Of a stretch of 64,000 nt of DNA, positions 26,594 to 63,227 are shown in pieces. Position 1 is the first letter of the stretch, and each line of letters opens with the position of its first letter. The translations under genes were made by a program, and so were the position numbers. The notes beneath the pieces were generated by a model that did not search any database, was not told the DNA's origin, and worked only from the letters and a program-made list of their open reading frames with translations. This stretch comes from Eledone cirrhosa. Its lineage: Eukaryota. The stretch is taken from NCBI GenBank assembly GCA_964016885.1, contig OZ024761.1:6448001-6512000 (forward strand), read 5' to 3'.

Positions 26594-26915
26594 ATATTGA
26601 AAAGATAACAAGGACGATTGGTTACTCCTTCATTACATTTATTGGTTCGAGACGCGCGTTTCGCCACTGATCAGCTCACGGTTCGATCTGTATCGATGTT
26701 ACCCGACTCTGATCGATACAGATCGAACCTTGAGCTTATCAGTGGCGAAACGCGCGTCACCAACAAATAAATGTAATGAAGGAGTAACCAACCGTCGTTT
26801 TTATCTTTTCAATATATTACACTCTGCATAGCTCTACACCTCAACACAGAAGTGAACCTAAACATCGAGTGCTCACCCGGGTGAACCTACAGTAACTCCA
26901 AGTTACACTCCCTAG
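26594..26915. mobile_element. Palindromic PLE-type 3'-end insertion with HHR 3' halves
   Basis: Arms 26594-26697 / 26712-26815; each has GAAACGCGCGTC followed by AATAAA; (TA)n flanks. Confidence 0.75.
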
Positions 26916-27087
26916 ATATATATATATATATATATATATATATATATATATATATATATACACACACATACATACACTCACACAGGTATATATATATATA
27001 TATATATATATATATATATATTTTTCTTTTTTTTTCTTCAAAGGAAGGCCACTGTTGTTCAACAGATGAATCTAAATAGTTTTAGAG

Positions 27088-27495
27088 TTTATTATCACAT
27101 CGTCAGAGGTGGGCCGCTCATTAACTGCAGCTCAATTATCACATCGTCAGAGATGAGCCGCTGATTAATTGCAGCTCAAGTCTATGTAAAGTGGTTGATC
27201 ATACTATTACCACATCGTCAGAGATGAGCCGCTCATTACCTGCAGCTCAAGTCTATGTATAGTGGTTGGTCATACTATTATCACATCGTCAGAGATGAGT
27301 CGCTCATTAACTACAACTCAATTATCATATCGTCAGAGATGAGCCGCTCATCAGCCGCAGCTCAATTCTATGTAAAGTGTTTCATACTATTATCATATCG
27401 TCAGAGATGAGCCGCTCATCAGCCGCAGCTCAATTCTATGTAAAGTGTTTCATACTATTATCACATCGTCAGAGATGAGTCGCTCATTAACTGCT
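27088..27495. repeat. Tandem 45-72 bp repeat (tatcacatcgtcagagatgagccgctca...)
   Basis: About 7 copies of the core visible. Confidence 0.85.
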
Positions 27496-27711
27496 GGTTA
27501 AATCGACCTCAGTGCCTTACTGGTACTTAATTATGGTGTGGTGGTAATGTTGGTGGTCGTCGTGGTGGTGGTGGGGTTGGTGATGGTAGTCATGGTGGTG
27601 GTGACGGTTGCTTAATGTAGAACTCTGCATTTTTTCACCTCTTTCTTAAGATGAAGTACAGTGATTATGCAGTAATAATACTATTATCTATCTATCTATC
27701 TATCTATCTAT

Positions 27712-27840
27712 CTTTTGTTATATTTTATTTTATTTTTATATTTTGTTATTGCCTCCTCCTTATTGAGGACGCCTTTTGTGTAAACTCCCCCCTTTGTACT
27801 TGTCCCACTTTTGATGCCCTGGTGGCAAATAAAAGAAACA
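27712..27840 (+). mobile_element. Short Tx1/L1-like 3' end in (TATC)n
   Basis: Ends gtggcaaataaaagaaa like the LINE ending at 30358; (TATC)n on both sides. Confidence 0.6.
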
Positions 27841-27913
27841 TATCTATCTATCTATCTATCTATCTATCTATCTATCTATCTATCTATCTATGTGAATAAA
27901 GAAATATATCTAT

Positions 27914-61185: not shown

Positions 61186-61442
61186 AATAAACACAGAAGA
61201 ATTGAGGAAGTCATCGCAATTATTAAATAAATTCTGAGTGAACATATTCAGGGACTATTCAAGCACCCTGTATATCATCGTTTGTAAAGCCCTTCATGAC
61301 TGAAGCAATTCAATAACACCATCCAGGTTTCTCCTATAGTAGACATAACCCGAGAAAACACACCATAATAAGTCGGTTAAACAATCAGAAGTGTTGGCCC
61401 TAAAGAGGGCCTTGTAACGTTCACTGTTGCAAAGTGTCAATA

Positions 61443-61670
61443 ATGGGGGAGACCAGGGACCCCTGGATATGGGGAGACCAGGGACCCCTGGATATGGGGA
61501 GACCAGGGACCCCTGGATATGGAGGGACCAGGGACCCTTGGATGTGGGGAGACGAGAGACCCCTGTATATGGAGGGACCAGGGACCCCTGGATATGGAGG
61601 GACCAGGGACCATGTATGTCGGAAGACCAGGGACCCTGTATATCGAGGGTCCAGGGACCCCTGTATATCA
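61443..61670. repeat. About 26-bp GC-rich tandem repeat with internal hairpin
   Basis: gaccagggacccctggatatgg units (ccaggg/ccctgg). Confidence 0.9.
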
Positions 61671-61984
61671 ATGATTATTTCGTCAATTCAGGTTTCAGAT
61701 ATTTCCACCCCATACATCAGTATCTATTGATTGAATATATCCACTTAAGTCATTTATATTCTATCGATATTTATTCTACACATATCAGTGGAGCGTTCAT
61801 TGCTACCAATTAACTAATTATCTTTAATGTATATATGCATTATATACACATTATATACACATTAAATACATTTCCTTGTTGATGTGAATTACTGTTTCAC
61901 ACTCTCTTTGCTCTCTCTTCGTTTTTCCAACAAGTTTTTATATAAACTAAAACGTTTTCTTGACATACAAGATTTATAACATGG

Positions 61985-62470
61985 GCGTGGAGTAGGTGGC
62001 TAAGTGGTTAGGGTGTTTGGCTCATGATCGGAAGTTCTGAGTTCGATACACGGCTGAGTGTTGCGTCCTTGAGCAAGACACGGTATTTCCAGTTGCTCCA
62101 GTTAATTCAGCTAGAAATAAAGATGAGAATCTCCTTGAGACATACGTACGTGAAAGATACACGTGTCTGTGGAATGCTTAGCCACTTATTCGTTAATTTC
62201 ACGAATCGGCTGCTCTGTAAATCTGTGTATGTGTTGAAGGGGTTAGGGTGTCTCATGATGATAATGTCATGAGTTGGGTCCCCGTTGTAGAGGAGTTCGT
62301 CGAGTGTTGTGTCCTTCGGCAAGACACTTTATTTCACCTTACTGCACTCAATTCTGCAGGCAAAAAAAAATGAGTTATTCTTATAAATTCGCGATGCCAG
62401 TCCTGATGAATCTTCCTGAGAACTACGTGGTGTAGAAGACTTGGCCACTTAAACATAAATTACACAGTAG
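61985..62470 (+). mobile_element. CORE-like tRNA SINE(s)
   Basis: gtggctaagtggttag A box, gagttcgatac B box, gtccttgagcaagacac core; second partial core at about 62305. Confidence 0.7.
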
Positions 62471-62864
62471 GCAGCTCCGTTGGCAGAATCACCAGGATTT
62501 CTCAATGAAAATGTCGGAGACCCAGCAACAACGGGCGTGTATACACTCACACGCGCACACGCAGACACTGACACACACTCACACACACACACGCAGACAC
62601 AGACACACACACACATATATATTATATATCATACACACATATATACATATTATGCACACACACACATATGTATATATAATAAGAAGTTGACGGGACCAGC
62701 ATAAGTTTCCTGTTAGGACCGGTTGCATCTCAGCGTACTCAATAAGTAAGGTTATGTAAAACTCCCAGAATAGACACATAGTTAATTGCTTCAACAGATA
62801 AAACATATATATATATATATATATATTATATATATATATATATATATATATATATATATATATA

Positions 62865-63227
62865 AAGTTAGATCCTTCATCAATGATCTTCCAACCATCA
62901 TTGGTATTTCATCGCTTTAAAGACCATATACCTCCGGTTGGTGCGAGCAACGGCTAACAAAAGTCGTTGGGACACGTAAATAAAGGGGACACGAGAGTGT
63001 AAACAAACAAAGATGGTGAAGCAACGAAAAACGGAGATGTGGTAAGGAACCAGGTGGACCATAACGCACCAAAGTACTCAATACTTAGGGTAGTAGAGTG
63101 GGTAATAGGAACGAGTAGGACCCCGACGGTTGAGCTCAAGCCGTTTCGACGGCTAATTCTGGACTCAGTCCAGAATTAGCCGCCGAAACGGCTTGAGCTC
63201 AGCCGTCGGGGTCCTACTCGTTCCTAT
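62865..63227. mobile_element. Palindromic PLE family E 3'-end insertion with long one-sided tail
   Basis: Palindrome 63105-63227 centred on ggact-c-agtcc; (TA)n flanks. Confidence 0.8.

Follow-up and report, generated by a model that had tools for sequence, protein, structure and literature searches.

The four short palindromes in a 64,000-nt stretch of the Eledone cirrhosa genome (assembly GCA_964016885.1, contig OZ024761.1, positions 6,448,001 to 6,512,000; hereafter the window) are real and very common insertions of Penelope-like elements (PLEs), each made of two back-to-back partial copies. The core of such an inverted insertion probably consists of two separately primed partial copies lying head to head, both complementary DNAs (cDNAs) having been copied from one capped RNA and then end-joined. 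A first-pass annotation of the window had attributed the palindromes to a nascent cDNA that folds back on stem II of the element's own hammerhead ribozyme and there self-primes its second strand.

Palindromes are pairs of partial PLE copies

Palindromes were found at all four places where the annotation had put them (P1, 26594-26815; P2, 32452-32577; P3, 59895-60006; P4, 63105-63227), with blastn self-comparisons giving E values of 1e-41 to 1e-79 and arms matching at 98/111, 58/63, 52/56 and 59/61 positions, respectively. Each contains two outward-facing 3' halves of a hammerhead ribozyme without the 5' half of the core, also as described earlier. In contrast to the claim that (TA)n adjoins both sides, one arm of each palindrome runs on for 80-100 nt (P1 to about 26917, P2 from about 32374, P3 from about 59807, P4 from about 63029), and the left flank of P4 is not (TA)n. 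The palindromic mini-element thereby survives as a palindromic core, but the unit itself is asymmetric, a short arm joined to a long arm with a tail. The hairpin on the axis had been equated with stem II directly 5' of the GAAA motif. P3 does retain the native stem II loop, which sits on its tail-less arm, but P1, P2 and P4 lack the native tip, and comparison with parent copies and folding showed their central hairpin to be a product of the inversion itself.

Inverted chimeras are a known library artefact, which speaks for an origin of the palindromes in assembly or amplification. The palindromes are not chimeras, because their arms differ by 3-12%, one family has 4,141 joints with a spacer of 0-10 nt genome-wide, and joints between opposite strands are also present, for both families tested, in the raw reads from three further samples that carry the same species label. 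Ends are moreover fixed and asymmetric, and joints are shared across these reads; one side lay at -8 to -22 (positions relative to the G of GAAA, which is 0) in 11/13 of the P2/P4 raw-read joints listed. The chimera reading is already refuted for this class, and we give it a negligible probability.

Parent elements and their ribozymes

Where the annotation saw three unrelated families, three distinct ones were indeed present (P1; P2 and P4, which are one family, P2/P4; and P3), but all of them fit one PLE clade. Its assignment of the palindromes to PLEs was upheld: parents of all three families encode an open reading frame (ORF) with a reverse transcriptase (RT) plus, at the C terminus, a GIY-YIG domain, recognized by motif as a YRDD RT core and a VIY/IVY..YIG..FK.R..H domain. 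Pfam returned 0 families for 2/2 parent proteins, and a PDB search of the parent proteins gave nothing below E 0.5. Read by eye against the published description, the proteins carry DKT, a CxCx5C linker, CxxC and CxH and no CCHH, with an RWK-like motif seen in P2/P4 and P1 only. By these motifs the three families fit the Hydra clade of C-terminal endonuclease-positive (EN+) PLEs as set out in the accessible text of PMC8557442. That the pseudo-long terminal repeats (pLTRs) carry the hammerhead halves and that the events are recurrent and independent was likewise borne out.

Exact-motif counts in the 3.0 Gb genome, for which reversed-pattern controls gave 0, amounted to 36,161 hammerhead halves and 34,149 tail ends for P2/P4, 34,417 and 13,359 for P3, and 1,933 and 925 for P1. 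We then anchored insertions on the tail end rather than on the ribozyme, using loci on contig C1 with an exact tail motif, and called both 5' ends against natural copies (P2/P4, 112 called, 1 dropped and 21 corrected by eye; P3, 73, 5 and 6; P1, 50, 2 and 3). These samples lean young because the exact tail motif was required. An inverted tail-less arm was present in 83/111 P2/P4, 38/68 P3 and 23/48 P1 insertions. Each family has two fixed 3' ends that lie 80-100 nt apart; in P2/P4 both finish in TAT. A direct pLTR lies upstream of the ORF in 9/25 RT-bearing P2/P4 loci, with the tail continuing into the 5' untranslated region (UTR), and because the tail runs into the 5' UTR in such tandem pLTR-ORF parents, both fixed 3' ends are internal to the RNA. 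Tails on both arms were seen in two P2/P4 insertions (L139/L140 and L168; 2/111), so that both ends are able to prime at the outer site. A long inverted element, L157, has a 512-nt short arm and a 2.9-kb long arm that are 98% identical.

The parent ribozymes differ among families. P2/P4 parents have mostly a U3-A8 core and a stem II of 54-56 nt, together with stems I and III and the G10.1-C11.1 pair; one copy (L031) folds as a type I hammerhead with this core and a long stem II, the other 4/5 copies folding otherwise at minimum energy. In P1 parents stem II is about 62 nt long, the core is canonical in some copies and degenerate in many, and one of three copies folded with stems I and II in place. 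The P3 parent, with a 13-nt stem II and a non-canonical core, does not match a type I hammerhead (A at position 4, no G10.1-C11.1 closing pair, 0/2 folding so), and by motif and fold its ribozyme is hammerhead-like only. A further family, F5, has a canonical type I hammerhead. An Rfam scan of the window gave no hammerhead match on the four palindromes among 150 of 209 matches, only microRNA-hairpin noise. A minimal canonical hammerhead of another family at 33100-33144 scored 29.1 bits with Rfam Hammerhead_1, under the 34-bit cut-off.

Arms end at one site per family

Rather than being spread uniformly along the 3' ends, the ends piled up at one site in each family. Both GAAA halves were present in 57/83 P2/P4 inverted insertions, and in 52/57 of these both ends lay inside stem II. 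P2/P4 ends were restricted to -10 to -24, the 3' strand of stem II, at 5-19% per nt, compared with 0.2-1.4% per nt in downstream bins and none at -25 to -29. In contrast, both ends fell in stem II in 0/11 P3 insertions (pile-up at -15 to -29) and 1/10 P1 insertions (pile-up at -71 to -107), and in F5 the ends sit some 120 nt upstream of GAAA (39 copies, by eye). The enrichment of the axis at stem II that the annotation foresaw therefore holds for P2/P4 and fails for the other three: the hotspot is real, but it is in stem II only in P2/P4 and outside it in P3, P1 and F5.

Raw reads of the three other samples are in accord with the P3 pile-up, since depth dropped from about 5,500 to 2,000 across -19 to -30 in one run, with no read-end pile listed there. 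The corresponding P2/P4 drop was not used as evidence because the read-end piles of the parent, at -11 and -22, coincide with likely restriction sites of a restriction-site-associated DNA library.

The two arms of one insertion behave together. Among 51 insertions in which both arms reach -10, both arms stop in 46 and both pass in 5, with no mixed case (p=4e-7). Arms within an insertion differ by a median of 1 base, compared with 7 between insertions (38 insertions); the arms of one insertion share one template.

Fold-back on stem II does not account for the joints

Self-priming on stem II requires the tail-bearing cDNA to pass and keep the native loop (-22 to -29), leaving a long arm through that loop and a short arm that starts from the 3' strand. 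Despite the 52/57 P2/P4 palindromes with both ends in stem II, and native cDNA hairpins that are stable (-7.7 and -10.2 kcal/mol), this signature was found in 0/83 P2/P4 insertions; the native loop is kept in window P3 and in L055. Non-overlapping arms, with the long arm confined to the tail, made up 10/83 P2/P4, 16/38 P3 and 5/23 P1 insertions (31/144 in total), and the short arm extended more than 4 nt further 5' than the long arm in 32/83, 25/38 and 16/23, respectively. Two palindromes of the window itself show the latter, the tail-less arm ending at -49 and the long arm at -36 in P1, and at -11 and -3, respectively, in P3. Fold-back of the long cDNA can yield neither non-overlapping arms nor a further-reaching short arm, and fold-back of the short cDNA cannot supply the tail. 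Later deletions could mimic some of these cases at single loci. Together with the stem II ends of 0/11 in P3 and 1/10 in P1 and the distant F5 ends, these counts largely refute stem II fold-back as a general rule; we regard it as highly improbable for the class, while it may explain rare single cases.

Joints fall at predicted start sites and carry an extra G

Each pile-up begins at an A in an Inr (initiator)-like context, and some 30 nt upstream of it lies a TATA-like box; Inr and TATA are standard consensus motifs and were applied here as such to the sequence. We tallied by hand the base directly 5' of this start A, where not native, in the first 100 matches listed. P4 gave G86 A14 (of 5,157 matches) compared with G27 A20 T53 at a control position (-13), and P3 gave G51 A24 C25 (of 2,536) compared with G13 A36 T51 at -19 (G:A against control, Fisher, p=3e-4 for P4 and p=8e-6 for P3). 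In F5, whose site was predicted before the search, the tally was G38 A3 T59 (of 958; p=9e-11 and 2e-4 against two controls). The G's also occur in pure TA flanks, and solo arms likewise start at the same A with a G in such flanks. Some joints have a spacer of 0-6 nt bounded by C and by G, which indicates that both cDNAs end in an added C, the putative copies of both caps. At 24 loci that are near-copies of P4, the single centre base was assigned to the long arm in 9 and to the short arm in 9, with 6 unscored. By these sequence features, the A of the pile-up appears to be an RNA polymerase II start and the preceding G a copied cap, and the joints likely mark the start of the element RNA rather than a ribozyme hairpin.

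Several points weigh against this reading. Start sites and caps are predictions from DNA sequence. Many P2/P4 arms pass the A at -18 by 1-6 nt, which calls for another start around -22 or for the addition of A's. G outnumbers A at the P4 control position too (27:20). About a quarter of the P4 G's (23 among the 100 matches listed) were possibly templated by the partner arm or native context, as were 14/51 P3 G's, without which P3 stays at 37:20. The commonest preceding base in F5 is T (59/100), which we ascribe to the TA target. P1 ends are spread over -71 to -107, and the G tallies cover P4, P3 and F5. The copies are exact-motif, young ones, nearly all from one contig, with rows corrected by hand. 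An arm's own partner was the closest or tied in only 21/38 insertions, and L055, which lies outside the counted sample, is a lone snap-back-like joint.

U-rich runs adjoin the sites, directly upstream of the P4, P3 and P1 pile-ups, and poly(T) stutters occur at the P4 site (L045, L049), which keeps pausing a live rival: two primed cDNAs would stop at a structural or U-rich pause within a longer RNA, the RT would add C, and no transcription would start there. A pause should however hit the arms independently, yet the two arms share one outcome in every insertion (46/0/0/5); in RT-bearing loci (L331, L340-342, L346, L347, L352) the site is passed by the inverted partner, and the G excess is position-specific. 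We consider pausing unlikely. As a separate observation, the U-rich run next to the pile-up contains expanded poly(T) in L045 and L049 (near 1480) and in two P1 insertions, which suggests RT stuttering at the template end.

A hybrid scheme was also weighed, in which a single tail-primed cDNA runs off the cap, snaps back by micro-homology (with the RT or DNA polymerase theta) and copies itself. The near-identity of the arms and the ends lying within 4 nt of each other in 42/83 P2/P4 inverted insertions would fit such a scheme, but it cannot give non-overlapping arms or a further-reaching short arm, offers no account of the cap base on the short arm (9/18 scored) or of both-cap joints, and would have to form hairpins at spacers of 0-1 nt, which are too tight. 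This makes it quite unlikely.

Alternatively, a few master palindromes may have been copied as units, like miniature inverted-repeat transposable elements (MITEs) or short interspersed elements (SINEs), with asymmetry arising by later deletions and arm identity by gene conversion. Palindromes are prone to deletions at their centre, and at least 40 near-identical copies share one type of joint. Joints vary greatly, however, in both spacing and sequence, and the ends are asymmetric, so that the copies have neither one common centre nor symmetric ends; the recurrent joint is found in both polarities relative to the tail, and solo arms, too, start at that A after a G where the flank is pure TA. 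We judge this origin very unlikely.

Three further candidates were rejected. A splice acceptor was considered from the pyrimidine tract and AG near each pile-up, but the AG is itself part of the arm ends, and the arms are not joined to any shared upstream exon. A fixed cDNA length is contradicted by long and short arms that stop at the same coordinate despite an 80-nt difference in length, and ribozyme cleavage as template end by arms that extend well beyond the cut site.

Proposed mechanism

Two separately primed cDNAs on one capped RNA could arise as follows. Both cut ends of a (TA)n target would prime reverse transcription on the same RNA, at its two start sites, and the outer cDNA would displace the inner one; to our knowledge, PLEs have no RNase H. 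Both cDNAs would then run off the capped 5' end. Priming at the near-cap site copies would give strong-stop-like cDNAs of 60 and 140 nt, which host non-homologous or microhomology-mediated end joining (NHEJ/MMEJ) would trim and fuse into a mini-palindrome, whereas priming at the downstream pLTR would produce long inverted elements such as L157. Stem II may supply micro-homology, as in window P3, but would not fix the site of the joint. The stem II pattern noted in the first-pass annotation would arise because the predicted P2/P4 promoter sits inside the enlarged stem II.

More tentatively, and with somewhat less than even confidence, we propose for PLEs of this clade symmetric double target-primed reverse transcription (TPRT), in which an RT-endonuclease dimer would prime both ends of the (TA)n break on one RNA, most insertions would be double strong-stop products that record start site and cap, and the core promoter of one family inside stem II would act as a position-dependent switch of self-cleavage. 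If so, an RNA started inside stem II would carry half a ribozyme, and only read-through RNA from tandem copies would carry a whole one.

Other elements and features in the window

Coordinates of the arms are collected in Table 1. More P2/P4 and P3 copies lie at 24021-24069, 41937-42144, 49883-50177, 51148-51574 and 52356-52472, and F5 copies at 31750, 32592-32898 and 48060-48425, where 48103-48425 holds two insertions face to face, one with its own short inverted arm. A PLE of another clade, presumably Neptune-like, occupies 341-3959, with a 1.6-kb inverted repeat whose arms are 99.8% identical around a 373-nt spacer and with an RT and GIY-YIG joined by a Cx4CxxC linker. Two AT-rich long palindromes (20977-21433, 86% arm identity; 58790-59097, 97%) showed no hammerhead motif in the scan and are possibly other PLE joints or MITEs.

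At L110/L111, near 1500, a P2/P4 short arm is fused directly to a palindrome of the P3 family, possibly a chimera of two families formed at a single break, or else nesting. Stem III was recurrently deleted between short direct repeats, in one arm only (L041, L043, L135, L196, L199). P1 tail matches recur every 45-50 kb or so on one strand of contig C1 at 217.33-217.71 Mb, which suggests a large tandem segmental duplication.

Table 1 Arms and joints of the palindromes in the window (positions with sign are relative to the G of GAAA)
Feature	Coordinates	Strand	Remarks
P1 short (tail-less) arm, inverted	26593..26711	-	spans +71 to -49; matched by blastn with the natural copy L066
P1 long arm, -36 to about +171	26711..26917	+	tail of about 100 nt to (TA)n; GAAA 26747; match to 26914
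P2 long arm, inverted, tail of about 80 nt	32374..32514	-	5' end at -20; blastn match from 32379
P2 short arm, -20 to +42, then (TA)n	32515..32577	+	GAAA 32535
F5 palindrome, two complete outward hammerheads, axis well upstream of both	32592..32898	.	counterexample to the stem II rule
P3 long arm, inverted, tail of about 90 nt	59807..59947	-	extends only to -3; end read from sequence
P3 short arm, -11 to +49, native stem II loop	59946..60006	+	2-nt overlap with long arm; GAAA 59957
P4 long arm with tail, inverted	63029..63165	-	stops at the A at -18 (predicted transcription start); match from 63033
P4 axis, single C	63166..63166	+	not in subfamily parent copy (T in L039); likely the long arm's copied cap
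P4 short arm, -18 to +42, then (TA)n	63167..63227	+	GAAA 63185

Discussion

Much of the architecture described here is already known, namely the inversion of pLTRs, tails on one side only, targeting of (TA)n, promoters in the pLTR, U3-A8 cores and hammerheads paired on opposite strands (PMC8557442, PMC3846280, PMC2377424, PMC4209133, each in its accessible text, to which the comparisons below also refer). EN+ PLEs have been described with an inverted 5'-truncated copy, a tail at one end, targets that are AT-rich or (TA)n, a pLTR with TATA- and Inr-like motifs, and palindromic inverted junctions (PMC8557442; PMC3846280). We find the same inverted pLTR and one-sided tail, with tails of 80-100 nt compared with the 30-40 nt reported. 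The Hydra clade shares with our families the DKT, RWR/RWK-like, CxCx5C, CxxC and CxH motifs and the (TA)n targets, but is reported with canonical hammerheads, in contrast to the U3-A8 core of P2/P4, the stem II of about 62 nt in P1 and the degenerate core of P3 (PMC8557442). Hammerhead variants of PLEs with U3-A8 covariation, a larger helix II, a palindromic loop III and opposite-strand pairs 100-700 bp apart are likewise on record (PMC4209133), and these features recur here; the accessible text of that study contains neither a promoter in helix II nor an analysis of joints.

Self-priming as a general idea is not new, since PLE junctions have been read as self-priming, possibly on an antisense template (PMC3846280); in contrast, our data point to two primings on a sense, capped RNA, with the hotspot at the predicted start. 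In vitro, with uncleaved RNA as template, the Poseidon PAc protein cuts both target strands and extends them from two start sites within the RNA, between which the tail lies (PMC11167929). PAc belongs to a different clade and its priming is reported as non-homologous, whereas here both P2/P4 sites end in TAT, matching the target, and the accessible text of that study does not treat inverted genomic products, cap run-off or joint positions (PMC11167929). L1 twin priming offers the same second priming from the other target end and an inversion closed by NHEJ/MMEJ, and full-length L1 insertions bear an additional 5' G as a mark of the cap (PMC11702581). Unlike in L1, both start sites are fixed here and close to the 5' end of the RNA, and in most cases the two cDNAs overlap, which gives a palindrome. 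L1 inversions are usually non-overlapping. Retroviral minus-strand strong-stop DNA is also a short cDNA, primed close to the 5' end of the RNA and halted at the cap; the products here differ from it in being target-primed, made twice and directly integrated, so that the likeness is an analogy only.

A literature search, with subscription journals, Repbase notes and supplements outside its scope, returned no report of cap run-off or stem II as a PLE inversion hotspot, nor of a promoter inside a hammerhead stem II. The origin of the inverted repeats and tails of PLEs has been named as an open question (PMC8557442). Thousands of natural joints favour two primings on sense capped RNA, tying the in vitro result of two start sites to genome structure, and the extra-G signature would allow PLE promoters to be mapped from DNA alone. 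Where transcribed, the thousands of perfect hairpins of 60-110 bp could feed double-stranded RNA editing; a lizard Penelope and a palindromic frog repeat are reported to be heavily edited (PMC5625713). If symmetric double TPRT holds, it would give rise to the inverted pLTR and the tail on one side that are typical of all PLEs.

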